This document shows, piece by piece, positions 16,724 through 34,969 of a stretch of 64,000 nt of DNA. The position numbers were made by a program, and so were the translations under genes. The notes beneath the pieces are model-generated. The model searched no databases. It had not been told where the DNA came from and was given only the letters and a program-made list of their open reading frames with translations. Within the stretch, counting starts at the first letter, position 1, and each line of letters begins with the position of its first letter. Source of the DNA: Oscillospiraceae bacterium (GTDB taxonomy: Bacteria; Bacillota; Clostridia; Oscillospirales; Acutalibacteraceae); the NCBI GenBank assembly GCA_015065445.1, contig SVQF01000001.1, forward strand, positions 37,199 to 101,198, given 5' to 3'.

Positions 16724-17185
16724 GTGTCATGGCTCTTAAAGTCAGTCATTCAAAAGCATGTGGCAGTTAGTGCTATAGGCATAATGTTAGTGTGTTTCTT
16801 TGCAAATGCATCTGTCCTGCTGCCATCTTCAAGCATTTTCATTGTGGTTGAATACTCTATGATAATTAATCCACTTCTTGTAGCGCTTTGCGGAGCAATC
16901 GGCTCATCACTTGGAGAACTAACAGGATTCTATTTAGGAAGATGTGGAACATCTGTCATTCCAAAAAAAATCACAATATGGATACAAGAAAAGATGTCAT
17001 GTCATAAATACTTAGTTGTGTTTTTATTCTCTGTGTTGCCTTTGCCAATTTTTGATATAGTCGGAATTCTTTCAGGGGCGACAAAAATGAATGCTTTGAA
17101 GTTTTTAGGAATATGTTTCGTCGGAAAACTGATCAAGATGTTATGTTATGTTTGGTTGATGCACGAAATGGTGCTATTTGTTTAA
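16724..17185 (+). CDS. Small DedA/VTT-like polytopic membrane protein
   Basis: 153 aa with four hydrophobic helices. GSSLGELTGFYLGR resembles the VTT/YqaA motif. GTG start. Confidence 0.5.
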   Translation: MSWLLKSVIQKHVAVSAIGIMLVCFFANASVLLPSSSIFIVVEYSMIINPLLVALCGAIGSSLGELTGFYLGRCGTSVIPKKITIWIQEKMSCHKYLVVFLFSVLPLPIFDIVGILSGATKMNALKFLGICFVGKLIKMLCYVWLMHEMVLFV

Positions 17186-17198
17186 AAAGGAGGAATCA

Positions 17199-18785
17199 AT
17201 GATGAATACGGTTGATTATGCCTATACAAAAGGAAAAACAAAACTTAAGCTTTCCTTTTTAGGCTCGGGAGGAGAAGGTTCAGTTTATGAAATTGTTGGA
17301 TACCCTAACCGAGTTGCAAAGATCTATCATGACGAATCGAACTTTCAAAAAAAAGAACGGGAAGCCAAAATAAATGCCATGGTGGCAATCAGCCAAAACT
17401 TTAATTTTAAAAGTGCAAGCCTTTCTAACGATATAGCTTGGCCATTGGCTCCTCTCTATGATGTCAATGGAAATTTTATTGGTTTTGGAATGGATCGAAT
17501 TCCAGCTACAACCGAACTTGATGACTTATATGTTTATCCTACAAAAAACAATGCAACTGTAACAATTAAGGATCGAGTTACATGTTTAATTAGTCTTTGT
17601 GATGTTATTGAAAGACTGCATAAGATTGATCAGGTATTTGGAGACTTTAATCCAAATAATATCAAAATCAAATCCGATTGGACAGTGAGTTTTGTTGATG
17701 CTGACTCATACCATGTAAATAATAAAGGGAATGTGTACCGATGTGTTGTTTGTGCACCCGGATATGTAGCTCCAGAGGTGATACGTGCTTGTAAAGGCAC
17801 AACTTATGCACAGTGCAAGTATACAACGTTTACAAAAGAAACCGACCGTTTTGCACTTGCTATTCACATCTTTAGAATGCTGATGAACGGATGTCACCCG
17901 TTTACCTGCGAAAGACATGTAACGCGAGTCGGTTCAGCACCTGCACCTAAGTCAACTGACAAGAGGGTAGAAACTGGAGAAACTCCATTTTTCAAATCTG
18001 TTCCAAACTGTGTTGCACCTCAATATGCACCTGACATTAACTCACTTCCATTATATCTTAGAGATTTATTTAGAAAGGCGTTTATTGAGGGACATACTGA
18101 ACCATCTAAAAGACCTTCTGCTTCTGAATGGAAAAGAGCGTTAATTAAATACAATTCTGAATTAATTGAATGTAAGAGCAATCATTTGCACTTTTATTGG
18201 AAGGGAGACCATTCTTGTCCATATTGCGAAGCTGATCGCAGATACAATCAAAAAATCGGTCTCGTCCCTGCAAAGAGTATATCAAAAAAGACGATTATTA
18301 ATACAAACAACTGTACACAATCTTCAAAAAACAAAACCAATACTAATAGCACTTACAAATCAAAGAAGGTTGCATCAACTGCCACGGCTGTTTCATCTCG
18401 AACAAATCGCTTGAACTCGGGGCTTTTTTGGAGCATTACACTCACAATCACTATAATCATGCAGGTGTTATTAGGGCTGTATGCACTACCAGAAATCTAT
18501 AGTGAAGTATTTGATAATGAGACGATAGCAATAATTGGGGTTATAGGCAGTTTGGTGTCAGGCATAGTTGGTTCAATACTATTCAATTGTCTATGGGCCC
18601 CGGGTAAGTATAAAGGCTCGTATTCATGGTGGGAATATCTCTTATCAGTTTTAACTGCATTTGGGTTCACCGTTGGATTTGGTGTTGTTATGGGGTTAGT
18701 AATTCTTATCGCAATTGCCTTGTTTTATTTGTTGGTTGGTGCTGCAATCATTGCAATAATTATAGGCATACTTTCAGGAGGTTAA
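17199..18785 (+). CDS. Ser/Thr protein kinase with zinc ribbon and C-terminal multi-TM domain, TerY-P triad component
   Basis: Gly-loop GSGGEGSVYE, Lys in VAKIYH, catalytic GDFNPNNIKI, VDADS, and YVAPEV. CPYC follows, then an S/T/N-rich linker and about four TM helices. Confidence 0.8.
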   Translation: MMNTVDYAYTKGKTKLKLSFLGSGGEGSVYEIVGYPNRVAKIYHDESNFQKKEREAKINAMVAISQNFNFKSASLSNDIAWPLAPLYDVNGNFIGFGMDRIPATTELDDLYVYPTKNNATVTIKDRVTCLISLCDVIERLHKIDQVFGDFNPNNIKIKSDWTVSFVDADSYHVNNKGNVYRCVVCAPGYVAPEVIRACKGTTYAQCKYTTFTKETDRFALAIHIFRMLMNGCHPFTCERHVTRVGSAPAPKSTDKRVETGETPFFKSVPNCVAPQYAPDINSLPLYLRDLFRKAFIEGHTEPSKRPSASEWKRALIKYNSELIECKSNHLHFYWKGDHSCPYCEADRRYNQKIGLVPAKSISKKTIINTNNCTQSSKNKTNTNSTYKSKKVASTATAVSSRTNRLNSGLFWSITLTITIIMQVLLGLYALPEIYSEVFDNETIAIIGVIGSLVSGIVGSILFNCLWAPGKYKGSYSWWEYLLSVLTAFGFTVGFGVVMGLVILIAIALFYLLVGAAIIAIIIGILSGG

Positions 18786-19824: not shown

Positions 19825-21144
19825 ATGATTATTCGTAAAACAATGCTATATGGTAATTCCGTGAACGATAACGCTTTAACTGCACTTTGCTCTAAACCAC
19901 TAATTATTATCCCGGGTGTTACAAATGGGAAACAAACCTTTGTTGGATTCACTGAAGACACGCTCCATATGCATACTCTATTTATGGGCGGAACAGGTTC
20001 CGGAAAAACGAATACATTCTGTCATCTTATACCGCAGTTGCAAAGAAAAATGACAAACAATGATGTCATGTTGGTATTTGATTCTAAACAAGATTTTGAG
20101 CAATTTCACAGAGAAGATGATTATGTAATCAGCTATCGAGCTCAGAGTAAAGGTGAAAAAGAAACCTGGAACCTGTTTCGTGATGTTATAGCAGACGGAT
20201 GGGAAAAAGAAAGTATCATTATGAATGCAGATGAAATAGCGGACGTTATTTTTTCAAAGGCAATAAACGAGAGTTCCCAACCGTTCTTTCCAAGAGCCGC
20301 AAAAGATATCTTTGCCGCAATCATTAAGGGAATGTGTTTCATTGGAATCACCGACAAAGATTACAGAATTAATTATATGAATAACAAAGCTCTAATTAAG
20401 TATCTTACAGCTTTAAATGCAGAAAAACTGCATGCATTTTTAACAAATATACCAGAACTTGCAGGTGTGCTTAAGTATATAGGTAATGGAAAATCAGAGC
20501 AAGCCCTTGGAGTATTTGCGGAACTCCAATCTGTAGTTGGACACATCTTTACAAGAAATTTTGCTGAAGATGGTCGTTTTTCAATAAGGAAAACGGTTCA
20601 ACAAAAAAATGGTCGTACGCTATTTATAGAATATGATCCTTCAAGAGGAGTGTCTTTGCGCCCAATATATCAGTTGCTTGTTGACCTGTTTTTAAAAGAA
20701 GCCTTAACTCCAAAAGACGGTACAAAAGGTAATGTATTCGTTATTTGTGATGAACTGAAAATGCTTCCCTTTCTTAATCATCTTGAAGATGCACTAAATT
20801 TTGGTAGATCGCTTGGGGTTTCAGTTATTGCCGGCATTCAGAGTATGGAACAATTATATGAAGTATATGGAGAATACGGTGGCAAAAACATTGCTTCCGC
20901 GTTTCAGACGGTATTTTGTTTTCATACAAATGACGTTGCTTCTCGGCAGTACATAAAAGGAATGTTTGGAGAAAACAAATCGGTTATTCAATATATGACG
21001 CCTTCTGGAAAAACCATTGAAGAACAACACAGTGGATATAGTGTTGAAGATTGGGATATAACGAACCTAAATAAAGGAGAGGCCATAGTCGGCATGCCAT
21101 ATCAATTGCCATTTAAGATTAAAATAAAAAAATATGGAGGATAG
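19825..21144 (+). CDS. Soluble TraD/VirD4-like P-loop NTPase, paralogue 2
   Basis: Walker A GGTGSGKT, Walker B VFVICDELKML, and SVIAGIQSMEQL. No TM helix. Confidence 0.75.
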   Translation: MIIRKTMLYGNSVNDNALTALCSKPLIIIPGVTNGKQTFVGFTEDTLHMHTLFMGGTGSGKTNTFCHLIPQLQRKMTNNDVMLVFDSKQDFEQFHREDDYVISYRAQSKGEKETWNLFRDVIADGWEKESIIMNADEIADVIFSKAINESSQPFFPRAAKDIFAAIIKGMCFIGITDKDYRINYMNNKALIKYLTALNAEKLHAFLTNIPELAGVLKYIGNGKSEQALGVFAELQSVVGHIFTRNFAEDGRFSIRKTVQQKNGRTLFIEYDPSRGVSLRPIYQLLVDLFLKEALTPKDGTKGNVFVICDELKMLPFLNHLEDALNFGRSLGVSVIAGIQSMEQLYEVYGEYGGKNIASAFQTVFCFHTNDVASRQYIKGMFGENKSVIQYMTPSGKTIEEQHSGYSVEDWDITNLNKGEAIVGMPYQLPFKIKIKKYGG

Positions 21145-21149
21145 GAAAA

Positions 21150-22427
21150 ATGGGTGGAAAAGTCAACACTGTTTTGTCATTGGTCGCTGCACTAATAGAC
21201 CGTTCCAATCGTAAAAAAGCGAGAAAAAGAATAAACTTGCTAAACGAACAAAACCGAAACATTCAAATGCTTGGAAGCTCAACTACAGAACATATTATCC
21301 CTAGTAATTACCAAATGGGTAATATAAGCATTTCCGGAGGTACTACAGATATTCGAAATGCATTAATAATTCAAAATTGCAAGCAAAGCGTATCATTGGG
21401 GGTTCCAACAATAATAATACATGAAGGCAACTATCTTTTAGAACAACTATTGCAATCTACATTTTCAAATCATCGATATTTGAGAATAATTAACCCTAAT
21501 AACCCATATTATGAGCCGCTCTTTAGATTAAGCGACATGGAGATTGGTCATTTCATATCTGATTCTTCCTTAAAAGAACACAAAATCGGATCAAATGGTG
21601 CATTATATGTAAGTGCACTCTCGACTATTCTTCGCAAAAAGGGTATAACACCATACACCAGAATGTTTGCAAACTGTCCCCATGGTTCTATTAACAATTT
21701 AATTGTAAATATGGAAAACTCTGGTATCATATCCGCAAATGAAGCTGATAAATTAAGAAACGAAGTATTGTTGGGAATAAAAGAGCAAGCTGAAGTTGAG
21801 TATTTTTTTCAACAAACAGAACTTGAATCTCCTATTTTAGCATGGAAAAGCAATCTTTCAAAATGCACTTCCGTTTCTGAATGCATTTTGAGGAACGGAA
21901 TCATGTCTTTAGATATTTCCAGTTGTGGAAACCAGAATCAATTATCGTTAATATCTACTGAAATTAATAATTGTAAAAGAACAGGAACACAATTTAGAAT
22001 AATTGTTGATGCGGTATCATTTTATGGAAATGACAAATTAATTCAAGTTCTAAAAAACACGTCGGGTTCAGCCTCATGGACTATTTCATCTCCAGACATT
22101 GACTGTATGCTTGGAAATACTCCGGGAGAACTTGCCACTTGGTTGGCTTTGTCACACAGAGCAATACTGTTTTCACATGGAATTAAAACATGTGAATTAT
22201 TATCTGCTGAATTAGGAGAATATGAACATATAGATGTAGTTGAGTCGCATGCAGGAAACAATAATATCGGAAGGATTGGCTATCATTATGGTGCTAATTC
22301 TAGTTTTAGCACATCTGAAAAAAGGAAACGAGTTATTAAACCTGAAGAAATCGAATCTCTTGAAAGCAACGAATTCATTATGCTAGATAATTATACAGCG
22401 ACAATTAGCAAAGGGACATTGGTTTAA
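21150..22427 (+). CDS. Hypothetical protein, possibly a P-loop-degenerate paralogue of the preceding NTPase
   Basis: By eye, SGGTTDIRNALIIQN..PTIIIHEGNYLLEQL aligns with GSGKTNTFCHLIPQL..VMLVFDSKQDFEQF of the 19825 protein, and FRIIVDAVSF occupies the Walker B position. Confidence 0.5.
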   Translation: MGGKVNTVLSLVAALIDRSNRKKARKRINLLNEQNRNIQMLGSSTTEHIIPSNYQMGNISISGGTTDIRNALIIQNCKQSVSLGVPTIIIHEGNYLLEQLLQSTFSNHRYLRIINPNNPYYEPLFRLSDMEIGHFISDSSLKEHKIGSNGALYVSALSTILRKKGITPYTRMFANCPHGSINNLIVNMENSGIISANEADKLRNEVLLGIKEQAEVEYFFQQTELESPILAWKSNLSKCTSVSECILRNGIMSLDISSCGNQNQLSLISTEINNCKRTGTQFRIIVDAVSFYGNDKLIQVLKNTSGSASWTISSPDIDCMLGNTPGELATWLALSHRAILFSHGIKTCELLSAELGEYEHIDVVESHAGNNNIGRIGYHYGANSSFSTSEKRKRVIKPEEIESLESNEFIMLDNYTATISKGTLV

Positions 22428-22428
22428 A

Positions 22429-23463
22429 ATGGAGACAATGAAAGACTTTAATAATAGTTTGGCTGGCTACATTGCAAAAAACCAATACAGATACTACTAC
22501 ACCACTCTCTCAGTCAAAATGCAAAATGCTTATAGTATTTTGCTTGATGGATATTTGAAGCACAAAAGAGATATCAAGGTTAATGTAGGTAATATCGAAG
22601 ACGCTTGGTTAGTTCATAGAGCGCTTTGTTATGATGTTCCAGAATTGTTTTTTATCAAATCAATCAAGGCAGCTTTTAATCCAGTAAACACAACGGTTAC
22701 TGTCTACCCGGAATACCGTTTCGATTATGAGACTTGTATTAGCATTATTAAGAACATGGAACAACAAACAAAGCCTTTAATAAAAAAAATATCAATGTTT
22801 TCAGAACAAGAGAAGGTTAAGGCAATACACGATTACATAGTAGAAACAGTTACATATAAAGATTTAGACGCTCCATATAGTCATGAAGCTCCAGGAGCTA
22901 TTCTATATGGCATTGCAGTATGCGAAGGGATTTCGAAAGCATTCAAGTTTTTAGCAGATAGAGCAAATATCAACTCCATAGTCCTTATCGGAGAAGCAGT
23001 AGACGGAGGAACTTATCGTACGGCAAACGAATCTGGTCATGCTTGGAATATTGCAGTTATAAATTCCGTATCTTATCACATTGATGTAACCTTTGATTAC
23101 TCACTTTCAAAAGGAAAAACTATCCGTTACGATTATTATCTTTTATCCGATAATCAAATACAAAATGATCATAAATTTAAACCTACTTTTAATTGTCGTT
23201 GCGATTACGAACACTATATATCAAACGGACACTACGCAGATAGCAGAAAAAAACTTCAACATCTTGTAAAAAATGAACTAAAAGTAGGAGGAAAACCACT
23301 TGTAATCAAAGTTCCAAATGTTTTTGAAAGCGAAAAACAAGCATCCGAATTATTATTGCAAATCGTCGTATCTGCAATTCCCATGTCATATAAACTAAAG
23401 TCTACAGTTTCTTTATCGTACAACTGGATGCGAATGATTTATCAAATCGAATTAAGCTGCTAA
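22429..23463 (+). CDS. Transglutaminase-like cysteine protease-fold protein
   Basis: Cys in GIAVCEGISKAF, His in GHAWNIAV and Asp in HIDVTFD, which together make the Cys-His-Asp triad arrangement. Confidence 0.8.
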   Translation: METMKDFNNSLAGYIAKNQYRYYYTTLSVKMQNAYSILLDGYLKHKRDIKVNVGNIEDAWLVHRALCYDVPELFFIKSIKAAFNPVNTTVTVYPEYRFDYETCISIIKNMEQQTKPLIKKISMFSEQEKVKAIHDYIVETVTYKDLDAPYSHEAPGAILYGIAVCEGISKAFKFLADRANINSIVLIGEAVDGGTYRTANESGHAWNIAVINSVSYHIDVTFDYSLSKGKTIRYDYYLLSDNQIQNDHKFKPTFNCRCDYEHYISNGHYADSRKKLQHLVKNELKVGGKPLVIKVPNVFESEKQASELLLQIVVSAIPMSYKLKSTVSLSYNWMRMIYQIELSC

Positions 23464-23530
23464 AAACATCTCTAATTAATGAAACAATAAATAGCGTTAA
23501 ACAATTTAAAGGTTAATTGCTGTGCTAATT

Positions 23531-23583
23531 AAAATCCCGATTCATGATTTATCGATGATGCGATAACAGAATCGGGATTTTTG
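23531..23583 (+). terminator. Intrinsic terminator closing the 13.2-23.5 kb gene array
   Basis: aaatcccgattc / gaatcgggattt form a 12-bp stem followed by TTTTT. Confidence 0.65.
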
Positions 23584-23685
23584 ATGTCCTAAAAGCCCTG
23601 AAACGGGTGCAACAATAAAAACCTCTTGGAGAAAAATAGTGTTACTGCGTATTTATAAATAACAACTCAGAAAAGGGTGATAAAA

Positions 23686-23871
23686 ATGAAAACTATTCAA
23701 GATTACGATTTTTCCTGCGTAGCAAATCACAGAGCTGAAAACATCGAACAAATGCCTCACTCACTACTAATTGCTTCTGAAAAGAAAATCTATGTTCCCG
23801 AAAATAGAATTATTCTGTTGGACCAAATGAGTGAACAAGAATCTCAAATTATAAACAGAATAGTATTTTAA
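23686..23871 (+). CDS. Small hypothetical protein (61 aa)
   Basis: ORF with a weak ribosome-binding site, isolated in a 550-bp spacer. Confidence 0.3.
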   Translation: MKTIQDYDFSCVANHRAENIEQMPHSLLIASEKKIYVPENRIILLDQMSEQESQIINRIVF

Positions 23872-24020: not shown

Positions 24021-24593
24021 ATGATTAGAGATCCAAACATTGTTGTTACACATAATGGAGAGGCACAAATGGTAACGCCGAGAGACAACCTCTATATTAA
24101 GAACCGAATGGTTTTTTTGACAGGAGAAATTGATCAAGATTTATCCTTATCAATTATTTCACAGTTATTATATTTAGATAATGAGTCAAATGAAGATATT
24201 GTGCTCGTTATCAATTCGGGCGGAGGCAGTATTAGTGATGGCTTTGCAATTCTTGATGTCATGAACAGTCTAGATTCTGATGTGGAAACAGTGTGTTCTG
24301 GAATGTGTGCAAGCATGGCAGCAATTTTACTTGCCGGTGGTACTAAAGGGAAGCGAAAGGCGTATAAAAACGCAGAGGTAATGATACATCAGCCACTTGG
24401 AGGTATTAAGGGTCAAGCAAGCGACATCGAGTTGACTGCAAAACATATCTTAAGCAGAAAAGATGCGCTTAACACCTTGCTTGCTGAAAGCTGTTGTAAA
24501 GAAAAAAACATTATTGCCACAGATACTGACAGAGATAACTGGATGACAGCAGCAGAAGCATTAGAGTATGGGCTAATTGATGAGATTATTTAA
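24021..24593 (+). CDS. clpP: ClpP-family serine protease, full catalytic triad
   Basis: GMCASMAA (Ser), MIHQPLGG (His) and TDRDNWM (Asp). 190 aa. Confidence 0.9.
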   Translation: MIRDPNIVVTHNGEAQMVTPRDNLYIKNRMVFLTGEIDQDLSLSIISQLLYLDNESNEDIVLVINSGGGSISDGFAILDVMNSLDSDVETVCSGMCASMAAILLAGGTKGKRKAYKNAEVMIHQPLGGIKGQASDIELTAKHILSRKDALNTLLAESCCKEKNIIATDTDRDNWMTAAEALEYGLIDEII

Positions 24594-24604
24594 GGAGGTA
24601 AACC

Positions 24605-25378
24605 ATGATTCGTGATATTAAGGAACCTGCAGGACTTGACTCTGTTAAATGCACCGTTAAAAACATCTGTAGCGAAGCCGCAAAATATAGATTCCGCCAT
24701 CCTGCAAGCATGATTATTTATCTTAATGAAAAGCAAGGGCGCAGCACCGTTGCTGAATATATCACAGATATGTTCTTTGTTCACAAGGTAATGGATTTTT
24801 CAATGTCCAGAAGTGAGTTTATTGAGCTTGATTTCAATGGAGAGTATAAACAATTCAATGACTGCATGAAACAAGTTAACGATGCAGCCGATTATACAAA
24901 CGATGACAAATATTCAAATGTTCTCGTTGAAACAGGCATCAACAACCTTTCTAAGCATCTCGGCGAACAGCACGTTGATGATTATTTAAATCATGTTGAA
25001 ACAATGTCTAAAACTGCTGTACTTGTGATTTTTGTTAGCGAAAACCCTAATTCAAAAGAAAGTCAGCTCATAGATAGAATTAAAGAAGTACTTCCTTTTG
25101 CCAATATAATCAAGCCACATGAATATAGTGTGGAAGATTATTGCAAAGTCATAAAGGAAAAACTTTGCGATTATGGCGTTATTGTTCCTAAAAACACACC
25201 GTTAAATGAGATCGTAAAGAAATCAATGAATAAAGATAAGTCTTTCAATATGAAAGATGCATGCTTAATTGCCGAGGAACTATTTCTTGGTTCAAAACTA
25301 GTAAATGGGAAACTGAAGGTTGATGTTTCAGCAATTAATTCGCCCAAAACAGACAGGGTAATAGGAGGAAAATCATGA
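24605..25378 (+). CDS. Hypothetical protein, module C
   Basis: 257-aa ORF with an AAGGAGG ribosome-binding site. Its stop overlaps the next start (ATGA). Confidence 0.6.
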   Translation: MIRDIKEPAGLDSVKCTVKNICSEAAKYRFRHPASMIIYLNEKQGRSTVAEYITDMFFVHKVMDFSMSRSEFIELDFNGEYKQFNDCMKQVNDAADYTNDDKYSNVLVETGINNLSKHLGEQHVDDYLNHVETMSKTAVLVIFVSENPNSKESQLIDRIKEVLPFANIIKPHEYSVEDYCKVIKEKLCDYGVIVPKNTPLNEIVKKSMNKDKSFNMKDACLIAEELFLGSKLVNGKLKVDVSAINSPKTDRVIGGKS

Positions 25379-26979
25379 GCAGATATGAAAGGTTCTCTGA
25401 AGAGAAAGAGCTAAATAAAAACTTTCCATTAGCGGGTAAAGGGGTAAGCGGATTACCCGTTTACTATGATAAGAAACGACAGCTACACTGTGATCCGGGA
25501 CCAGCGCATGCACTTATTACAGCTACAACTGGCTATGGTAAAACATATGGTGTATCATTATCAGCTATCATGAGATGTATTGAGGCAACTGAAAGCTTTG
25601 TTGTTATTGATTCAAAGAAAGATGCACTTAGGCACACATTTAATGCCGTTCCGGAAAATTATCAAAAATTTGTTTTCGATTTTAGCAAGCCTGCCGAATC
25701 TCCTGACAAGTGGAATCCGCTTGAATTAATTCGTGTTCAATTAACCTCATCCGATATTACAGAACAGGACCTTGGATACGAAAATCTTAATGCGTTCACA
25801 GTTGGCTTGCCCGATAAAGATAAGGATTCATTTTGGCCAAATAGTTCCACAGAATTATTAACTGGAACTGCAGAAGCGTTAATTGAATCATCAAACGATC
25901 CTCGCGAGGTTCACATGGGGAGTATTTGCAGAATTCTTAGGGACGGCAACGAAAGATTTGGCGGAAATATTCTTCTTAAAAGTTTTTATGACTCGTTGTC
26001 CGATGATTCACTTGCGAAGCAACATCTTGGTACTTTTGTGAATGCTCCAAATGATACTAGAAACTCTATCTATGCTGTAACTTCAACAGCTTTATCGGTG
26101 TTCACAAGAAGCAGAGGCTTATTGCAAATGATTTCTCAAGATACAATTGACATTGCTCACCTTGATAATAGCGAGTCTCCAGTTGCCATTTATATATGTT
26201 TACCTGATGAAAACAATGTACATGCGAAATTGGCGGGGTGTTTAATTCAACAATTATCGCAGCAATTTATTAAATTAGCTCGTTCTCAGCCTGATGGAAA
26301 GCTGAAAAATCGAATTAGCTTTATTTTAGAGGAATTAGGTTCTATTGGAGGTTCAATTCCAAATTTAGCAAACCTCATGACAGCCGGTCGCTCTCGAGGA
26401 ATAAGAATGGTCCTTATATTGCAGAGTTTATCTCAACTTGATGCTATCTATGGTGAATCTGCAGAAGCAATTAAAAACTGTATCGGTATTACATATAGTT
26501 TTTCAAACAACAACTTAGATACGCTTAAAGAATTCAGCGAAAAATGCGGTTATTGTAATGACAAAGATTTGTTAATAACTCCTACACAGCTTTCAGCAAT
26601 GCCTCCTCTACAGTGCCTTGTTATTCTTTACAACAGATATAAATTCATCAGTAAATTTGAATTCTTTACTGATGTCTATAAAGTGGAAGAATATACTCCG
26701 TCAGGTCAAGAAAGAGAAAAAATTGAAAAAGCAGTTAATTCAATTAAGTATTTCAATATTAAGGAGTATGTAAAAAAAGCAAGGGAGAGAGCGCAAGTGG
26801 AAGCAATAAGAAAGAATAACGAGTTAAATCCATTTGCACAGCCGCACAGTCTTCCCTCTTCTTGTCCTAGCGATCCAATAATGCCTGATGATATAGACAT
26901 AGAGGAGTTAGTGAAAAAAATAGATGAGGAAATCGCCAAAAGAGAAAGAGAAATTGAAAGTGAGAGAAATGATGAATAG
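25375..26979 (+). CDS. Soluble VirD4/TraG-family NTPase, paralogue 3
   Basis: Walker A ATTGYGKT, then WNPL, FILEELGSIG and TAGRSRGIRMVLILQSLSQLDAIYG. No TM anchor. The acidic C-terminal tail resembles that of the 9544 protein. Confidence 0.85.
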   Translation: MSRYERFSEEKELNKNFPLAGKGVSGLPVYYDKKRQLHCDPGPAHALITATTGYGKTYGVSLSAIMRCIEATESFVVIDSKKDALRHTFNAVPENYQKFVFDFSKPAESPDKWNPLELIRVQLTSSDITEQDLGYENLNAFTVGLPDKDKDSFWPNSSTELLTGTAEALIESSNDPREVHMGSICRILRDGNERFGGNILLKSFYDSLSDDSLAKQHLGTFVNAPNDTRNSIYAVTSTALSVFTRSRGLLQMISQDTIDIAHLDNSESPVAIYICLPDENNVHAKLAGCLIQQLSQQFIKLARSQPDGKLKNRISFILEELGSIGGSIPNLANLMTAGRSRGIRMVLILQSLSQLDAIYGESAEAIKNCIGITYSFSNNNLDTLKEFSEKCGYCNDKDLLITPTQLSAMPPLQCLVILYNRYKFISKFEFFTDVYKVEEYTPSGQEREKIEKAVNSIKYFNIKEYVKKARERAQVEAIRKNNELNPFAQPHSLPSSCPSDPIMPDDIDIEELVKKIDEEIAKREREIESERNDE

Positions 26980-27871
26980 CGAAATGTTAAACGGGTTAAT
27001 TGAAGAACAAGACGGCAGGAACATTAAAGTCCCCATAAAGGACATTTTGGATGAATGTATAGCATTTAATGAATGCAGCTATCCTATCGAAACAACTTTT
27101 CTCATTCGTCGGTTTTCTATAAGCGGTTTGAATTTAGGCTATTATACACCGGAAGACCTTCCGGTAATAGTTAACCGATTTTGTTCAAAAATCCGCTGCA
27201 TAAAATATGACTATAATATTGGAACCGACAATAGTGTTAAACACTATTCAATTAAGAACGGCACATTGTATTTGTCTGAAGAATTGGAGTCCATTAATCC
27301 TTACTTGTTTGAAATTTCAGCATTTGCAGCATTTTTTGAAGTCATATCTGATGCGGATGTATATCATGAACATGAAATCTTTAAAACTGTTCTTTCATAT
27401 ATGGCCGGTGAAAAATTCTTAAATATGGACAAGAATGATTCGCGAATAATAATGCCTAAAACTGAAGAAATTGTTTGTGGGCAATATAAGTATGAACTTA
27501 GAGCGGGATACACATTTTTCAACCTTCCAATTGTTTTAGTGAAGCAGTTGTTTATTGCACTACATAAAAACGAAAACATTCTTATTAGAAACTCACTGTT
27601 AGGAAACTTTACAAAAGACACGGTAGATGAATTGGTCAATGACAACAAACAAGTATCAATGTTGATATCTGTTGTTGATGTGATTACTCGCTCATACATT
27701 AATCAAGAATATGAAGAAGCAAACAAGTTGTTGTTTAAATATCAAAAAATAATCAACTTACTTTTCAAAAAGGTAGATCAAGATTATTTAGCCTTTTGTG
27801 CTCTTATTCTGACAGATGAGTGGAGAAGTTCCCTTATGAAAGCCATGGAAGAAAGACTAAACTCGCAATAA
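26969..27871 (+). CDS. Hypothetical protein, module C
   Basis: About 300 aa, overlapping the NTPase gene end. No motif was recognised. Confidence 0.5.
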   Translation: MMNSEMLNGLIEEQDGRNIKVPIKDILDECIAFNECSYPIETTFLIRRFSISGLNLGYYTPEDLPVIVNRFCSKIRCIKYDYNIGTDNSVKHYSIKNGTLYLSEELESINPYLFEISAFAAFFEVISDADVYHEHEIFKTVLSYMAGEKFLNMDKNDSRIIMPKTEEIVCGQYKYELRAGYTFFNLPIVLVKQLFIALHKNENILIRNSLLGNFTKDTVDELVNDNKQVSMLISVVDVITRSYINQEYEEANKLLFKYQKIINLLFKKVDQDYLAFCALILTDEWRSSLMKAMEERLNSQ

Positions 27872-27926
27872 AGGCGTTGATCGTTTAGATATAAATGTTT
27901 ACCCATAATTGTCTTATCTTAATATT

Positions 27927-27974
27927 ATCCGTTTCATAGGTCTCTTTGATATAGACAAATGAAACGGATTTTTG
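27927..27974 (+). terminator. Intrinsic terminator closing module C
   Basis: atccgtttcat / atgaaacggat form an 11-bp stem followed by TTTT. Confidence 0.65.
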
Positions 27975-28154
27975 CCAACAACTATAATTAAATAAAAACT
28001 GGAGAAAGTCAATTGCGATACGTATACAAGAACAAGGAAACTTGAATTGAACATAAAATGCAGCTCGTTAATTAACTGTATTATGAAGGTGTTTTGCTAT
28101 ATAAGCAATTATTATTATAAAATTCACATAAAGAGGAAAGGACAAGAAATATCT

Positions 28155-31052
28155 ATGGGACTAAACGAGATAATAAAAGTTACTGATGAAATTGTTATAA
28201 CACTTGCGAGTCCGTTAGCCGTTCCTTATTTAGACGAATTCATTGTTAATCTATTAGGACGAGATTACATGTTCAAATATCGTTACCGTTGCGCTCCAAG
28301 AAAAATAGAATTTGATGAATACTCGGGGAAAAAGCACATCCCCGATAAGGATCGTTATGGAGGCATGCATCTTCGCAATACAAAAACCTATGGCACAAGC
28401 CGTATGTCCGCGCTTGCAATTTTGGAACATTTAATAAATAACCGTCCTATAATAGTTTATGACAATAAATGGAACGGCGAGCGTAGCGTTAATGAAAAAG
28501 AAACGCACTTAGCTAATGAAAAGGCTAAGGCAATTGTTGATGAATTTGAACGCTGGATTTTTGAGAGTTTAAAGCGCAGAAATGAGATTAGAGAGGTTTT
28601 TTATAAAAAGTACAATATAACTGATAGATGCAGTTTTGATGGTTCTGCACTTGTTTTTCCCGAAATAGCAGAAGATTTTGAGTTAAGACCTTACCAAAAA
28701 GATGCAGTCGCAGCAATTCTTGAAAATGGCGAATCAATCGATTCAAGAAACAAGATTCTTTGTCATACTGTTGGAGCAGGAAAAACAGCAATTGTTATTG
28801 CAGCTTGCATGGAATTGAAACAGGCGCATATATCCGAAAAAAACCTTATCATTGTACCAAAAGACATACTGAATCAGTGGAGTACGATGTTTAAGAGCAT
28901 CTATCCTAACGCAAATGTGCTCGTAATTGCACCGAGTGATTTTACTCCGTCAAAGCGAAACAAAGTGCTTCAACAAATTCGAGATACAGATTCAGATGCA
29001 GTTATTATGTCAAAGAGCAGTTTTGATATGATCGCTCTTTCAAAACAGTTTCTCATTAATGAAACAGAACAAAAGATCAGAGATTTAAATAATAAGCAGG
29101 CAAAGATTATTGCAAGTGGCAAAAGGCCTTCGTCAAAACTGATGAAAGATCGAAGGAAGTTGTCAGATGTGCTTGTTAAAATCAGTGCGAAAGAGCAAAG
29201 CAATGCTATTTGTTTCGATGAACTTGGTATAACTAAGCTCTTTGTCGATGAGAGCCAAAGTTACAAAAACCTTCCTCTTGCCTCGTCACTTAAGGTAAAA
29301 GGTTTTTCAGGAGCCGGCAGTAAAAAGTGTGCTGATATGCTTAGAAAAGCAAGATGCGTACAAACAAACGGTGGAGGAGTTGTCTTTGCAACCGGAACTC
29401 CATTAAATAATTCATTAGCAGAATTGTTCGTATTACAGACATACCTTCAGCCTGAACTTCTTATTAAGACAGGCAACGAAGATTTTGATACCTGGGTTTC
29501 AAATTTCGCTGAAATAACAGAAGATCTTGAAATTGATGTGACTACAAGTAAATTTGTACCCACACGAAGATTGAGCAAGTTTAACAATTTAAAGCTTCTT
29601 ACAGAACAATTCTCGCAAGTTGCGATCTTCCATGACTATCAACTCGACAACTCTGAGCTGCCTGAATTTGATGGTTATGAGGACATAATAATTAAAAAAA
29701 CAAAAGCTCTTGCAAGATATCTTGAATATATTAGCGAGCGTGCAACCAAAGTAAAGGCAGGTGAGGTGCCAAGAAGCACGGATAATATGCTTAAAATCAC
29801 CACGGATGGACGAAAGGCTGCACTTGATATTCGTCTAGCGAGTCCATTTGGCACATTTCATATTGAATCTAAGGCATATTACTGCGCAAGTAAGGTAGCT
29901 GAAATCTATTATGAAACAAAGAAAGACAAACTTACACAAGTTGTTTTCTGTGATCTTGGAACACCTAAAACAACATTCAATATGTATGATGAACTCAAAC
30001 GGTTGCTTGCCAATGAGGGTGTCATTGAAGAAGAAATAGCATTCATCCATGATTACACTACGGATGCCAAGAAAAAGAAACTCTTTGAGGATATCAACTC
30101 TGGCAAAATCCGTATAGTAATCGGTAGCTCTTCTAAACTCGGCACTGGAGTTAACATTCAAAGCCGGTTGGTAGCCGCACATCACCTCGATGTTCCGTGG
30201 CGTCCGTCAGACCTTATTCAACGTGAAGGTAGGATTATAAGACAGGGAAACATAAATAAGAAGGTTAGAATCTTTAGGTACATAACAGAGGGCAGCTTCG
30301 ATGCTTATTCTTGGCAAATCATTGAGGCAAAAGCAAGATTTATAGCCGAATTCACGTCAGGTCAAAATGATATTAACACCGCTAGTGATATTGACGAAAC
30401 TGTATTGAGCTATGCAGAGGTCAAAGCTCTTGCTATAGGAAATCCTTTGATTAAGACAAGAGTTGAAAAGCAGAACGAACTCAATCGTCTTCTTATGTTG
30501 CGTGCTAAAGAAAGAGAAGAAATAGCCGTACTCAAGGACAATCTTCGTCAAATGGAGGAATCATACAAACAGATATCAGAAAAAAAGTCTCGCTTAACTA
30601 GTGACTATAGCATCGTAAAAGAAAACCCTCGTCCAAAAAAGGCTTCGCCTGAAAGAAACGAGTTGAAGAACACTCTGTTTGAAGCTGTAGGAACATATAT
30701 TGCTCAACCGGAAGCAAGAGTCGCTACTTCGTACAGAGGATTTGATTTAGTCCTTCCTTCCAACAGACAAGAAGGCGAAACGCCTTATATTATAGTCTCT
30801 GGAAAAGAGCAATATAATGTTGAAATCGGTGAAAGCCATAAAGGCGTTCTGGTAAGAATTGACAATGCTATTGATGGTATAGGTGACACACTTAACAAAC
30901 TTCAGAATCGAAAGAATTCTCTAACTAACGAGATAAGAGAAGCAAGATTATCTATAAATGCCTATGAAGAAGATAAGTTCAATATTGAAATAGACAAGCT
31001 CAGACTTATTATTAGCGAGATAGATGAGCAAATAAAGAATAATTCAAATTAA
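28155..31052 (+). CDS. SNF2/DEAD-like superfamily 2 helicase of the ICE methylase-helicase family, without a methyltransferase domain
   Basis: RPYQKDAV, motif I HTVGAGKT, motif II DESQSYKN and motif VI QREGRIIRQGN. The C-terminus is coiled-coil. ATG 28155 follows AGAGGAAAGG. Confidence 0.85.
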   Translation: MGLNEIIKVTDEIVITLASPLAVPYLDEFIVNLLGRDYMFKYRYRCAPRKIEFDEYSGKKHIPDKDRYGGMHLRNTKTYGTSRMSALAILEHLINNRPIIVYDNKWNGERSVNEKETHLANEKAKAIVDEFERWIFESLKRRNEIREVFYKKYNITDRCSFDGSALVFPEIAEDFELRPYQKDAVAAILENGESIDSRNKILCHTVGAGKTAIVIAACMELKQAHISEKNLIIVPKDILNQWSTMFKSIYPNANVLVIAPSDFTPSKRNKVLQQIRDTDSDAVIMSKSSFDMIALSKQFLINETEQKIRDLNNKQAKIIASGKRPSSKLMKDRRKLSDVLVKISAKEQSNAICFDELGITKLFVDESQSYKNLPLASSLKVKGFSGAGSKKCADMLRKARCVQTNGGGVVFATGTPLNNSLAELFVLQTYLQPELLIKTGNEDFDTWVSNFAEITEDLEIDVTTSKFVPTRRLSKFNNLKLLTEQFSQVAIFHDYQLDNSELPEFDGYEDIIIKKTKALARYLEYISERATKVKAGEVPRSTDNMLKITTDGRKAALDIRLASPFGTFHIESKAYYCASKVAEIYYETKKDKLTQVVFCDLGTPKTTFNMYDELKRLLANEGVIEEEIAFIHDYTTDAKKKKLFEDINSGKIRIVIGSSSKLGTGVNIQSRLVAAHHLDVPWRPSDLIQREGRIIRQGNINKKVRIFRYITEGSFDAYSWQIIEAKARFIAEFTSGQNDINTASDIDETVLSYAEVKALAIGNPLIKTRVEKQNELNRLLMLRAKEREEIAVLKDNLRQMEESYKQISEKKSRLTSDYSIVKENPRPKKASPERNELKNTLFEAVGTYIAQPEARVATSYRGFDLVLPSNRQEGETPYIIVSGKEQYNVEIGESHKGVLVRIDNAIDGIGDTLNKLQNRKNSLTNEIREARLSINAYEEDKFNIEIDKLRLIISEIDEQIKNNSN

Positions 31053-31177
31053 CAAAAGGCTGTTAGAGAATTATACTCGCTAACAGCCAATAAGACGGTC
31101 AAATTAAAAATGACTTTACACAGTTTTCTATGAATCATTTATATTACTGAATATAGTTTCTACTGATAGGAGTAATT

Positions 31178-32146
31178 ATGAAGTACCCAAGACTTGTCAA
31201 TGGTTTATCATATAAGAAGAACTATGACGGAACAGTTATAGTTAAAGATAATCGGATTGACGAATCATATCTTTTTGAAGAAGAGTCTGTTCGTATATTA
31301 CAGCATCTTGACGGTAAGACAGATCCATATAATGGAATTGAAACATACTATACTCCTAGCGAGATCGGTTTATTGATTGAATTCTTAATTGAAGAAGAGT
31401 TGATTGAGTACAGCAGGATTACTGCTTCCAATGGAAATATTTTGATTCGTTTGTTTAATATTAAAGTCAGTATGAAAAAAAGGATAATTTCGTTTGTCTT
31501 AAATGTCATTTTGATGAACTCATTCTTGCCAATTTTTATTTACGGGTTATGTATGTTCCTGCCTCGCTATAACGAATTAGAGTTTAGATTTCCATTGTTT
31601 TTTGTTGGTGCTATTATTGGGGTGTTACTTGGAGCACCATGTCATGAATTTGGACACTTAGTAGCAGCATTGGGGTTAGGTGGGAAGGCTTTTTCAATGG
31701 GAATACTGCTTGGAATAACACCCGGAATGTATGTTGAAATTAACGAAAAATGCATTAAAAGTACTTTGAGAAAGGTGCAAGTCCTTCTGGCAGGGATAGA
31801 AGTGAATTTGTTGCTTGCAGGTTTGTTTTTTATCATTTCTACATTGTTTTCTTCTTCTCTATTTTATGGTATTGCATTTAACAATCTATTGCTTGCAGTT
31901 GTAAATTTACTTTTTATTGATGGTTTGGATGGATACCAAGCGATGCAAATTCTACTTGGTGCTAACGAGCTAAATGAAAAAGCCAAAAGGCTACGAAATG
32001 AAACAGCTAAGAATGAACTATTATCTGAAGGTATACTAGGTTACATCAAATTCATTCTTTTTAGGATTATTAGATATAACCAACTTGCTTACCCGGTTTT
32101 GATTTTGATAAATATAGGTGGTGGATTATTTTGGATAATAAACTAA
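31178..32146 (+). CDS. Polytopic membrane metalloprotease (M50/site-2-protease-like, HExxH in a TM helix)
   Basis: HEFGH lies within a hydrophobic segment, and there are about six TM helices. Confidence 0.55.
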   Translation: MKYPRLVNGLSYKKNYDGTVIVKDNRIDESYLFEEESVRILQHLDGKTDPYNGIETYYTPSEIGLLIEFLIEEELIEYSRITASNGNILIRLFNIKVSMKKRIISFVLNVILMNSFLPIFIYGLCMFLPRYNELEFRFPLFFVGAIIGVLLGAPCHEFGHLVAALGLGGKAFSMGILLGITPGMYVEINEKCIKSTLRKVQVLLAGIEVNLLLAGLFFIISTLFSSSLFYGIAFNNLLLAVVNLLFIDGLDGYQAMQILLGANELNEKAKRLRNETAKNELLSEGILGYIKFILFRIIRYNQLAYPVLILINIGGGLFWIIN

Positions 32147-32490
32147 TTCAACTGAGCTTATTCTGTATTCCACTGGTCATTTCAATAATATCAGCTAAAG
32201 CATGCTTTTATTACCTTGTTCCAGTGATTATTATTCTGATTTTTGTTTTGGTGTCTGTTCTACCAATTTGTTTTCTTCACGAAAATATGTTTATTTTTGT
32301 TGTGTCAACAATTATTTTACAACCAGTAAATCTGTCTGTAATAAAAAACATTCTCGCTATATGTGGTGACGAATATGAGATTATTGGATTAATCTATTCT
32401 TTAATGCTATTATTTTGTATTTCTTGTGCTGAAAATATAGTTTTAGGAATTTGCGCAAGATTGATTTGGAAAGAACAGAACGAATTATAA
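32131..32490 (+). CDS. Small polytopic membrane protein
   Basis: Hydrophobic 119-aa ORF. TTG start after GGTGGTGGA. Confidence 0.4.
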   Translation: MDNKLIQLSLFCIPLVISIISAKACFYYLVPVIIILIFVLVSVLPICFLHENMFIFVVSTIILQPVNLSVIKNILAICGDEYEIIGLIYSLMLLFCISCAENIVLGICARLIWKEQNEL

Positions 32491-32506
32491 ATTGTTGAGG
32501 GAGAAA

Positions 32507-33082
32507 ATGAAAGATATACAAATAAAACAAAAAGATATTGCGTTTCTGATTGGGGCAATTACACTGGTGCTATTTATCATAACAACTATATTTAAAATAA
32601 ATCTTTCGTCTTATTATAGAGAGTTAAGCAATGAATACTTTAGGTCAAATCTTCTAGTCGTCAGTATAATATTTTTAGTATTATCATTTCAAGAAACTAA
32701 AGCTAATCATAAACTCTATAAAATGCTGTGTTTGACGCTACCCACAATTTTGTATACAAATCAATTTATGATTCTGTTGACTGATAATAACTGGAAAACA
32801 AATATGGATTTGTTTTGCGTGGCAAATATGTTCAGCATCATTGGAGCGTCATTTATGCTAGCGAGCATTATAAACAAAAGATTTTATGGTATTTATAAAA
32901 GTATTAATTGCGATGCTTTTTCAATTATTCTATTCTTAATTTCAGTCTCGATTGGCATTTGCTATGATTTCCACAGAATGATTCATTTGATAATACTTAA
33001 CATGATATATGTGTTTCTAAGTTGCTTAAACATCCTATCATCTAAAGACAAACAGACAAAACAGGAGAGAAAAAATGAATAG
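32507..33082 (+). CDS. Polytopic membrane protein
   Basis: About 190 aa with about five TM helices. ATG follows GAGGGAG. Confidence 0.5.
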   Translation: MKDIQIKQKDIAFLIGAITLVLFIITTIFKINLSSYYRELSNEYFRSNLLVVSIIFLVLSFQETKANHKLYKMLCLTLPTILYTNQFMILLTDNNWKTNMDLFCVANMFSIIGASFMLASIINKRFYGIYKSINCDAFSIILFLISVSIGICYDFHRMIHLIILNMIYVFLSCLNILSSKDKQTKQERKNE

Positions 33083-33641
33083 TAGAATTATAAGAGTTTT
33101 GTCCCTAATATCGTCTATCATATCAATGTCTTTAGTCGTTTATTTTATTATAAAGTATGCGCCGGATTTGATTTATTTAACTAGACCATGTGCTTTTCTT
33201 GTAATACTGGAGATAGTTCACATGATTTGTATATGTGCTTTATTTATTACACTTGCATTAAAACCCAAAACCAATAAAACATCCAATGCTTTATTGATGG
33301 TTATTATGCTTTTGACAATTTGTTGTCTATGTGCTCAAGGTATGCAGCTTGATTACCTTTTTAACTCATGGTTTTGGGATGCTTACAGCATATCTATCAT
33401 TGATTTAGCAGCATATTTTATTGTTTTATTTTACAATGTATATTTTGAAAAAAAGCATTATGAATTCCAAACAATTTTATGTATAGTATTTGTTACGGTA
33501 ACTGTTATATATCAGGATATAGGGTTGCATCGTTTTGGAATATACATTAATTCAATGATCGTTATTCTTCCTCTGATAACTCTCTTAGTTGATTTTGGCT
33601 TGTTTTCTAATACACCTCAAAAATGCAGAAAAACTGTTTAA
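33075..33641 (+). CDS. Polytopic membrane protein
   Basis: 188 aa with about five TM helices. It overlaps the previous gene. Confidence 0.5.
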   Translation: MNSRIIRVLSLISSIISMSLVVYFIIKYAPDLIYLTRPCAFLVILEIVHMICICALFITLALKPKTNKTSNALLMVIMLLTICCLCAQGMQLDYLFNSWFWDAYSISIIDLAAYFIVLFYNVYFEKKHYEFQTILCIVFVTVTVIYQDIGLHRFGIYINSMIVILPLITLLVDFGLFSNTPQKCRKTV

Positions 33642-33754
33642 AATAGAAAAAACAATATGTTTGTTTGGGATTTTTGCAATTCTTTTTCTGAAAGATAAGG
33701 GCAAAATACTATGATTATCAATAGCAAACAATTAGAAGAATAAGGAGAATAACT

Positions 33755-34459
33755 ATGGTACATATAACAGGAGATATACACGGAGAGCTATGGCGCTTCT
33801 GCGAAGAATGTATGCCCGGTGAATCATCTTGGACCGAAAACGATATTTTAATCATCTGTGGAGATTTTGGGTTTATTTGGTATGAGAAATCAGATAATGT
33901 AGGCTACCGTTCTAATGAAAGAGCACTAAACACACTTGCTGAAAAGCCATATACAATCCTTTGGGTTGATGGTAATCATGAGAACTTTAACCGAATATAT
34001 TCATATCCGGAAAACACTAAATACGGCAACAAGGTTCACAGAATAAGAGATAATATTTATCACCTTGAAAGAGGACGCATTTATACCATAGAAGGAAAAA
34101 GATATTTTACCTTTGGCGGTGCTTATAGCATTGACCGTTATATGCGTCAAAAAGATATAAGCTATTGGGAACAGGAGATTCCTTGTAACAGGGAGTACAA
34201 TCAAGCGAGTAAGGAATTAAAACAAGTAAATTATAAAGTGGATTATGTTATTACTCATACCTGTCCCTCGGAAATAATCAAACTTATGGGTTATTATCCC
34301 GATGTTCACGATGCTGAATTATGTGGATTCTTTGATTTCGTTATGTATGAAGTCAGCTTTACAAAATGGTTTTTCGGTCATTGGCACACAGAAGAAAAAA
34401 TCGTCTTGCCAAACGGAAAAGAACTTCGTGCAATTTTTAATGAAATTGAAACTATATAA
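33755..34459 (+). CDS. Calcineurin-like metallophosphoesterase
   Basis: GDIHG, GDFG, GNHEN, and HTCP..GHWH motifs, in that order. Confidence 0.8.
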   Translation: MVHITGDIHGELWRFCEECMPGESSWTENDILIICGDFGFIWYEKSDNVGYRSNERALNTLAEKPYTILWVDGNHENFNRIYSYPENTKYGNKVHRIRDNIYHLERGRIYTIEGKRYFTFGGAYSIDRYMRQKDISYWEQEIPCNREYNQASKELKQVNYKVDYVITHTCPSEIIKLMGYYPDVHDAELCGFFDFVMYEVSFTKWFFGHWHTEEKIVLPNGKELRAIFNEIETI

Positions 34460-34473
34460 AGGAGAAACATAAA

Positions 34474-34941
34474 ATGAGTGACAAAAGGGAAAACAAAAGA
34501 AATAATGATAAACGCACATATTATTCTTTTTATATTTTTGCGATAATATCTATACTAATTAATCTCTTATACTTTATTTTTTATGCGGAGCTAAGTATAA
34601 AATACATACCGAGTATTATTCTTTGCGTTGCTGATATTTTTCTTCTTTACAATGTTGTTATAGCTTGTAGTGATTTTAGCCTATTAAGATTGATATTATT
34701 TAGTGTTTTCTTTTCTTACCCACCAATTGCCTTATATAGCATTATTTGCCAGCCTTTTCCATATGCTTTGATGTGTTTTATTGCTCTACTACTTTTATCT
34801 TTATCTGCCTTTATCGAGCAATATAAGTACGAATTGAGAAGAAATGGCTTTATTATTAAAGAGTTTATAATCATAGAAACAGTTGGTGTAACAGCTTCAG
34901 CTTTAACAATAATCGGTATGATAATAAATCTGTTAGATTAG
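34474..34941 (+). CDS. Polytopic membrane protein
   Basis: 155 aa with four hydrophobic helices. Confidence 0.5.
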   Translation: MSDKRENKRNNDKRTYYSFYIFAIISILINLLYFIFYAELSIKYIPSIILCVADIFLLYNVVIACSDFSLLRLILFSVFFSYPPIALYSIICQPFPYALMCFIALLLLSLSAFIEQYKYELRRNGFIIKEFIIIETVGVTASALTIIGMIINLLD

Positions 34942-34969
34942 GTATTATTAGCGACAAGGAGACTACTCT

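Follow-up and report, generated by a model that had tools for sequence, protein, structure and literature searches.

A ClpP protease encoded with a VirD4-lineage NTPase, a predicted degenerate AAA+ protein and a fourth conserved protein in a cassette of Clostridia conjugative elements

Introduction

The compartmental protease ClpP serves both as a model and as a drug target. The IGF/LGF loops of the Clp ATPases are received by a pocket which in E. coli ClpP comprises residues L48, F49, Y60, Y62, F82, I90, M92, F112 and L114; to our knowledge, all known ClpP activators dock via this same hydrophobic pocket. Here we describe a ClpP in which the pocket residues differ, encoded in a cassette of four tightly packed plus-strand open reading frames (ORFs; positions 24021–27871) on a conjugative element of a gut Clostridia genome. 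The element lies in a 64,000-nt stretch of DNA, the whole of which is referred to as the window. The other three genes encode a protein of predicted AAA+ fold (g2), an NTPase related to the VirD4-type coupling proteins of conjugation, and a fourth protein (g4) that is also found as a domain of NACHT-WD40 proteins.

With ClpXP, ClpCP and ClpAP the cassette has in common an S14 ClpP with a Ser-His-Asp triad that is encoded with ring-type ATPases, one of them of AAA+ fold. It differs from these machines in that the LGF/IGF pocket and axial-gate residues of ClpP are replaced; the AAA+ protein is a single module of 257 amino acids with an arginine in Walker A and neither a pore loop nor an IGF loop; the only competent ATPase would be of the FtsK-HerA/VirD4 lineage; and there is an obligatory fourth protein, for which no fold relative was found. 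The coupling proteins of the conju_CD1115 family, from C. difficile CTn4-type elements, have the same domains, P-loop motifs, anchorlessness and acidic helix as the cassette NTPase, but the latter scores below the cut-off of that family, lies away from the type IV secretion system (T4SS) genes and is always found between g2 and g4 downstream of ClpP.

Among conflict systems, two-gene ATPase and protease defence systems such as IetAS resemble the cassette in that mobile or defence-island DNA encodes an NTPase together with a serine protease. The protein families are unrelated, however, and the protease of the cassette is compartmental and has three or four companions. Many STAND (NACHT/Avs-like) conflict systems have a protease as effector. 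There, the effector is recruited through a domain that the sensor has in common with a protein on the effector side (Kaur et al., 2020; PMC7159879), and that article mentions neither ClpP nor TraG. A comparable arrangement is seen for g4, which in one homologous locus (L038) is both stand-alone in the cassette and present at the C-terminus of the adjacent NACHT-WD40 protein; against this likeness, g4 (~280 aa) is far larger than the STAND adaptor domains, the window copy is without a NACHT partner and a homotypic contact would have to be presumed.

The initial annotation of this DNA knew of no described system of this composition. We found none either among the models of PADLOC, Pfam, NCBIfam and PHROG or in the literature searched; searches of PADLOC-DB 2.0 gave no match for ClpP, g2 or g4 and only a weak mad8 match (3.5e-7) for the NTPase. 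The cassette falls outside canonical ClpP, the CD1115 coupling proteins, the catalytic AAA+ ATPases and all PADLOC systems. It is akin to NTPase-regulated protease conflict modules and to Clp-type compartmental proteases, and its composition is probably undescribed. A ClpP lineage with a rewritten pocket, co-evolving with an ATPase of the coupling-protein type, would show that ClpP can be gated and supplied with substrate in a manner not seen before.

Conservation of the cassette

The order ClpP-g2-NTPase-g4 was identical in at least 10 diverged lineages with unrelated flanks: the window together with L001–8 (L0xx being homologous loci, of which L001–L008 are metagenome contigs); L013; L011/12; L033; L038; L014–18; L036–37; L028–30; L034; and L035. 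Identities across these lineages ranged over 43–83% for ClpP, 20–74% for g2, 36–80% for the NTPase and 31–97% for g4. Because the four genes keep their order at this divergence and between differing flanks, we consider the cassette to be a real module. Homologues of the proteins starting at 24605 (g2) and 26969 (g4) therefore travel with ClpP and the NTPase, a co-occurrence on which the initial annotation had made its proposal depend.

Pairwise identities were strongly correlated between ClpP and g2 (r = 0.89), ClpP and the NTPase (r = 0.93) and g2 and the NTPase (r = 0.97), whereas those of g4 were decoupled from this trio (r 0.3–0.4). The g4 proteins of L033 and L014, for example, are 97% identical and are followed by the same gene for a 1142-aa NACHT/WD40-type protein, but the corresponding identities are 58% for ClpP, 33% for g2 and 51% for the NTPase. 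The core is therefore a co-evolving trio, to which is added an always-present g4 that is exchanged by recombination. The unit of four genes originally proposed stands in the sense that all four are always together, and has to be amended in that only three of them co-evolve.

The packing of the genes, read from coordinates and sequence, is as first reported, with an 11-nt gap, a 4-nt ATGA overlap and an 11-nt overlap (for a g4 start at 26969). The start at 26969/26972 is favoured both by the homologue alignment and by the gene calls in related loci. Hairpins followed by U-runs lie on both sides of the cassette, in agreement with the terminators that had been claimed there; none of 200 shuffled sequences folded as well as either hairpin, and both were missed by a simple terminator scan because their loops are long. 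All four proteins are predicted to be soluble from their hydropathy. At 3.9 kb, with soluble products and a terminator at either end, the cassette should be directly clonable and testable.

Near-identical copies (98% nucleotide identity) were present in eight metagenome contigs, L001–L008. A scan of GTDB representative genomes with the g2 profile gave no relatives, as did scans of IMG/VR with g2 and g4 and a tblastn search of plasmids with g2; a scan of JGI metagenomes with g4 gave three loci only.

The docking pocket of ClpP

The protease is a full-length ClpP with an intact triad, as initially annotated: it matches Pfam CLP_protease (PF00574, E = 3.2e-62), and Ser98, His123 and Asp172 are invariant in an alignment of eight lineages. 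It is ~55% identical to Firmicute ClpP structures over residues 25–189. Its scores are under the NCBIfam cut-offs for ClpP (204.3 versus 308.6 for TIGR00493; 211.5 versus 249 for NF001368).

Eight cassette ClpPs were aligned with E. coli and B. subtilis ClpP for comparison of the pocket; the canonical residues of these two references at key positions were corroborated in PDB alignments. F82 is replaced by S or A, and M/I92 by S or T, in all lineages; L114 has become Y, C, T or Q, and in most lineages L48 has become R. The window ClpP further carries V in place of Y60, V in place of Y62 and K in place of F112. At the N-terminus, the gate residues E8, R12 and R15 are lost in the cassette ClpPs. 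As judged from these aligned residues, the hydrophobic pocket that takes up the loops of ClpX, ClpA and ClpC is replaced in every lineage and the N-terminal gate is remodelled. From established ClpP biology, we infer that the cassette ClpP works with a partner of its own and that the canonical Clp ATPases do not dock to it. No Clp/Hsp100 unfoldase is encoded in the cassette, and the ClpX and ClpC genes of the host lie beyond the window.

An extra C-terminal tail, K[IV]G[CD]PF[EC]E, is conserved in the ClpPs of L011, L014, L028, L033–L036 and L038 and is missing from those of the window and L013 types. Two cassette subtypes may thus differ in this tail, which is a possible site of partner binding.

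The NTPase and its paralogue in the element

The cassette NTPase matches Pfam T4SS-DNA_transf (PF02534, 1.6e-37) as well as PF10412 and PF12696 (TrwB_AAD_bind and TraG-D_C), and its only match among PDB sequences is TrwB. Walker A reads T52-G-Y-G-K56-T57 and Walker B I317-L-E-E320, with K56 and E319/E320 invariant, and the RSR and LQSxSQL motifs and the all-alpha domain are also kept. By its motifs this VirD4-type protein appears to be the only ATPase of the cassette with a full catalytic set.

The initial annotation had singled it out as an anchorless VirD4/TraG-type NTPase. Both the family and the missing anchor were borne out, the protein having no segment of transmembrane grade (maximum 19-aa Kyte-Doolittle mean 1.37), but anchorlessness is no special feature, since the CD1115-family coupling protein of the element (9544–11232) is also without a transmembrane segment (maximum 19-aa hydropathy 1.19). 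In all, the window holds three anchorless VirD4-like proteins.

The 9544–11232 protein scores 257.9 against the conju_CD1115 model (NF045973; cut-off 250) and is encoded downstream of a CD1110-type VirB4. Its relatives in GTDB genomes (35–40% identical) are likewise placed, 4.5–6 kb from a VirB4 homologue (L020–22) and with no ClpP nearby. On these grounds it is assigned, from sequence and position, as the element's own coupling protein. The cassette NTPase reaches 187.3 with the same model, is 29% identical to the 9544–11232 protein and has in common with it a C-terminal acidic amphipathic helix (L.KKID..IA.LE.EE); being below the cut-off at this identity and keeping the helix, it is best explained as a diverged paralogue of the transfer coupling protein. 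That it might prove to be the element's sole coupling protein, an outcome that would have been fatal to the original proposal, is not what the paralogue indicates. The cassette starts at 24021 behind accessory genes and not among the T4SS genes, and a scan of GTDB representative genomes with the NTPase profile returned only coupling proteins of the 9544 type without ClpP.

The 9544–11232 gene is itself flanked by genes for a 447-aa protein without family match (8188–9531) and a 346-aa TPR protein (11236–12276).

A degenerate AAA+ protein encoded by gene 2

The g2 protein gave no profile match in Pfam, PADLOC, NCBIfam or PHROG, and none in PDB sequences. A single sequence relative was found at first; a profile built from three cassette copies then recovered 21 clusters. 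An AlphaFold (AF2) model made from 17 sequences was of moderate quality, with a predicted local distance difference test score (pLDDT) of 75. Foldseek comparison of this model with the PDB gave 116 matches at E ≤ 1e-3, and the best 50 of the 116 were all AAA+ proteins: domains 1–2 of RFC (2chg, 3.7e-6), CbbX, bacterial and eukaryotic clamp loaders, ClpA, ClpX, Vps4, p97 and RuvB, with a probability of 1.0. As sequence searches of the PDB were empty, the fold is visible only from the predicted structure. DNA_pol3_delta is a non-catalytic clamp-loader subunit, and 12 of the 17 family members weakly match its Pfam model; no Pfam AAA family was matched.

In the model the P-loop lies where expected, between a strand (36–40) and a helix (46–59), and reads PGNGRT or KQGRST. 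The Walker A lysine is replaced by arginine in every member (G45, R46), and at the end of the Walker B strand there is one acidic residue (D or E) in place of DE. There is no aromatic pore loop, the beta2-alpha2 loop (residues 77–80) being short and without a conserved aromatic, and no conserved [ILV]G[FL] loop for docking to ClpP. The protein is thus predicted, from its modelled structure, to be of AAA+ fold and of the clamp-loader type. It is unlikely to be an unfoldase and is probably not a motor; more probably it serves as an adaptor or loader that either binds nucleotide or is inactive.

This assignment supersedes the description of g2 as an unknown protein. It also qualifies the statement that the cassette has no AAA+ unfoldase: an AAA+ fold is present after all by the Foldseek result, but in a degenerate form that makes an unfoldase unlikely.

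Gene 4 and its fusions to NACHT-WD40 proteins

The AF2 model of g4 was confident (pLDDT 89; predicted template modelling score 0.87). Foldseek searches of the PDB and BFVD gave nothing better than E = 0.25, there was no match in Pfam, PADLOC, NCBIfam or PHROG, and a profile search of PDB sequences was empty. A hidden Markov model search of 1.84 billion representative proteins recovered 70 clusters only. A metallopeptidase was considered and rejected, the likeness to zincin/SprT-like folds being faint (TM-score ~0.3, E > 0.25) and no metal-binding motif being conserved. LN[LM]G[YF], the motif best conserved in g4, was likewise considered as a ClpP-docking tripeptide; it is equally conserved in solitary chromosomal g4 proteins (described below) and hence is not specific evidence.

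Several g4 relatives are fusions. Three proteins of ~1250 aa (P0042, P0047 and P0051) start with a NACHT domain, continue with WD40 repeats and end in a complete g4 domain; P0106 joins NACHT to the first 100 residues of g4 and to DUF1292, and P0058 is a fusion of g4 with DUF1292. In L038, a complete cassette with a stand-alone g4 is followed, 0.7 kb further downstream, by the gene for P0047, the gene order being PP2C - 664 aa - kinase - small ORF - ClpP - g2 - NTPase - g4 - Tpt1 - NACHT/WD40/g4 - DUF1292 - TatD. The stand-alone g4 (8478–9338) and the g4 domain of the NACHT protein (10001–13813) are 42% identical and have all family motifs in common. The N-terminal halves of P0047 and P0051 are in turn 62–69% identical to two NACHT-type proteins flanking the L036 cassette. 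A NACHT gene is found in the locus in L014–18, L033 and L036–38, and further off in L034; in the NACHT proteins adjoining the L014, L033 and L036 cassettes, the N-terminal subdomain of g4 was not detected at E ≤ 1e-3. The occurrence of g4 both in the cassette and on NACHT-WD40 proteins offers a way to test whether bacteria link STAND sensing to regulated proteolysis.

DUF1292 also occurs near the cassette as a separate gene. The DUF1292 protein of the window shows 66% identity with the C-terminal part of the NACHT protein in L036 and 64% with the product of L013 4915–5193, a gene that directly follows g4. Relative to L013, the 27.9–37.6 kb region of the window (28047–37612) is an insertion that parts g4 from the DUF1292 gene. 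The insert holds genes for a DUF8437-SNF2 helicase (965–1001 aa), an M50-like protein, a metallophosphatase, a 563-aa protein without match and a protein with a DnaA_N domain.

Proposed function and competing explanations

Given the conserved order of the genes, the rewritten pocket of ClpP and the company that the cassette keeps, we propose that it is a self-contained regulated protease module, borne by mobile elements and used in genetic conflict; we give this proposal an even chance of being right. ClpP, g2 and the NTPase would assemble into a dedicated ATP-dependent protease, in which a hexamer of the coupling-protein-like NTPase would be the only competent motor as well as the substrate receptor, and g2 would be a non-hydrolysing adaptor or ring loader. 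The g4 protein would act as a specificity or adaptor module and, where a NACHT partner has a g4 domain, could couple the protease to the sensor by like-with-like contact, following the logic of PMC7159879. The module would degrade proteins of an invader, or host proteins as an abortive response, and would not serve conjugative transfer itself.

A bolder form of this proposal is that a VirD4-lineage hexamer has replaced the Clp/Hsp100 unfoldase as motor and receptor of ClpP, with the pseudo-AAA+ protein as adaptor or loader and a new domain wiring the machine to NACHT sensors. We put this forward tentatively and regard it, taken as a whole, as unlikely. If true, ClpP would here for the first time be driven by a motor other than an AAA+ protein and, for the first time in bacteria, form the basis of an immune effector; it would also show conjugation machinery recycled into conflict systems.

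Several observations weigh against a protease module for conflict. A ClpP-docking element was not identified in any cassette partner. The role in defence is argued through guilt by association only, and conjugative elements carry anti-defence genes no less often. The window copy is without a NACHT partner within 64 kb, where the NACHT fusions match only g4 and the DUF1292 protein, so that the window holds no pair of sensor and effector-side protein sharing the g4 domain. A separate clade of g4 homologues is solitary: in several Firmicute-like chromosomes the gene is placed between mutS and nusB, and its surroundings contain neither ClpP nor the NTPase (L009 8001–8858, L025 2736–3587, L026 603–1472 and L032 7995–8864; 57–71% identical to each other). 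This mutS-g4-nusB form looks like a domesticated or ancestral stand-alone domain, and since it is stable without the trio, g4 can function without it and is unlikely to be a toxin. Finally, the cassette family is rare, being found so far only in metagenomic gut and rumen Clostridia elements, and as several lineages are on related elements they may be less independent than they appear.

One alternative is a special case of the proposed module, namely an exclusion device against conjugation. Coupling proteins naturally handle protein that is covalently attached to DNA, and the cassette NTPase, which derives from the element's CD1115-family coupling protein and keeps the all-alpha domain and the substrate-contact acidic helix, could read the translocation signals of incoming relaxase-ssDNA and thread the relaxase into ClpP, thereby blocking competing elements; g2, which resembles clamp-loader and ring-loader AAA+ proteins, would load the ring. 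Such a device leaves both the NACHT-WD40 link and the independent swapping of g4 unexplained, and we think it rather improbable.

Equally improbable in our estimate is an anti-defence or establishment function, by which the protease would destroy restriction or immune proteins of a new host after transfer. It is consistent with the restriction of the cassette to conjugative-element-like DNA, with the variable region upstream, and with nearby genes of the SNF2/methylase and polyvalent-protein types, which are thought to aid establishment (PMC5512222). However, the immediate neighbours are mostly of defence type (TerY-P-like genes, Type III restriction-modification and NACHT-WD40 sensors), and a partnership with a STAND sensor is what one expects of immunity and not of counter-defence.

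A direct accessory role in conjugation is given little credence. Anchorless coupling proteins exist in Gram-positive systems, that of this element appears to be one, and the homologous cassette NTPase might be a second coupling protein for certain protein substrates of the T4SS, with ClpP processing them or controlling their quality. The 9544–11232 protein is the better candidate for coupling, sitting with the T4SS genes, whereas the cassette is at least 13 kb away among accessory genes and bounded by terminators; moreover, the ClpP-less relatives in GTDB are all of the 9544 type and none of the cassette type.

It is very doubtful that the protein is an ordinary extra ClpP working with the host ClpX or ClpC among unrelated cargo, even though phages and other elements sometimes carry clpP and its resemblance to Firmicute ClpPs and intact triad would be in keeping with this. 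The replaced pocket in every lineage and the scores below the NCBIfam cut-offs speak against it, as do strict synteny and co-evolution with g2 and the NTPase over the whole range of ClpP identity. Matches to the PHROG head-maturation protease families (phrog_94, 3e-40) raised the alternative that the cassette is left over from a module for phage head morphogenesis, its ClpP being a prohead protease; this is effectively refuted by scores and context: the protein reaches 210 bits with cellular ClpP but 89–92 bits with prohead-protease models (89.4 against a cut-off of 120 for NF045542), no portal, capsid or terminase genes are nearby and the IMG/VR scans with g2 and g4 gave no relatives.

Genomic setting

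The coordinates of the cassette and of other features of the window are collected in Table 1. The window is assigned to a conjugative element by its CD1110-type VirB4 (1009 bits), and the element also has a LexA-like/ImmA-like regulator pair and a tyrosine integrase.

Table 1. Features of the window (g2 and g4, products of genes 2 and 4; empty cells, no value given)
Feature	Coordinates	Strand	Length	Description
VirB4	1450–3816			CD1110 type
VWA/PP2C/VTT/kinase set	14770–18785			TerY-P-like
Upstream hairpin and U-run	23528–23586	+		terminator-like; closes preceding transglutaminase-like gene; dG -23.1 kcal/mol, z -5.87
Small ORF	23686–23871	+	61 aa	weakly conserved optional leader gene
ClpP	24021–24593	+	190 aa	
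g2	24605–25378	+	257 aa	predicted minimal AAA+ fold, clamp-loader/delta type
NTPase	25375–26979	+	534 aa	soluble, coupling-protein-derived P-loop protein
g4	26924 or 26969–27871	+	315 or 300 aa	alpha/beta protein
Downstream hairpin and U-run	27924–27978	+		terminator-like; dG -18.1 kcal/mol, z -5.41
DUF1292 protein	37678–37977	+	99 aa	possible displaced fifth component
Methylase and ResIII pair	38166–42377			Type III restriction-modification
Tyrosine integrase	50553–51752			

The position of the cassette between a TerY-P system and a Type III restriction-modification system, as given in the initial annotation, was confirmed by the VWA/PP2C/VTT/kinase set on one side and the methylase and ResIII pair on the other. 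TerY-P genes (vWA-PP2C-kinase) are upstream neighbours in five of the 10 lineages (window, L034, L014–18, L036–37 and L038). They are separate genes, with a terminator between them and the cassette in the window, and are not an obligatory part, since they are absent upstream of the near-identical cassettes of L001–L004. The block of 98% identity with L001–L008 starts at window position 23761, inside the small upstream ORF, and extends beyond 35375; upstream of 23761, L001–L004 (1–9156) carry Prok-JAB/ThiF (E1-like)/DUF2625/transglutaminase genes and not the TerY-P and TraD-like genes of the window. As upstream content differs between near-identical elements, the site just upstream of the cassette is evidently a hotspot of cargo exchange. 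Across the loci, neighbours of conflict type included PP2C/kinase/VWA, JAB/ThiF, Amidoligase_2/GGACT, Tpt1, TatD, SNF2 and Type III restriction-modification genes.

Counterparts of the small ORF (57–62 aa) are found at the same position in L001, L011, L014 and L038, and the window and L038 products are 37% identical with a common pattern, '..EKxLIVP....D.MS'; there is none in the L034–L036 loci. As a core component it was rejected, being weakly conserved, absent in several lineages and split by the recombination breakpoint.

In the TerY-P-like set of the window, the genes for the PP2C phosphatase and the kinase are parted by one for a VTT/DedA-type membrane protein. The same five-gene order, VWA, PP2C, VTT, kinase and transglutaminase, is found at L034 3879–8071, there directly abutting the ClpP cassette.

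Immediately upstream of the window cassette (19825–23463) is the gene for the third anchorless NTPase, a TraD/TrwB-like protein of 439 aa (PADLOC mad8, 1.6e-16; weak HerA matches), followed by genes for a 425-aa protein, which matches TraG-D_C faintly, and for the transglutaminase-like protein. These genes may constitute another NTPase-based accessory module. Further downstream, a 259-aa ORF with a TTG start (49466–50245) lies just upstream of the integrase gene; its PemK/MazF-like toxin domain takes up the first ~120 residues only.

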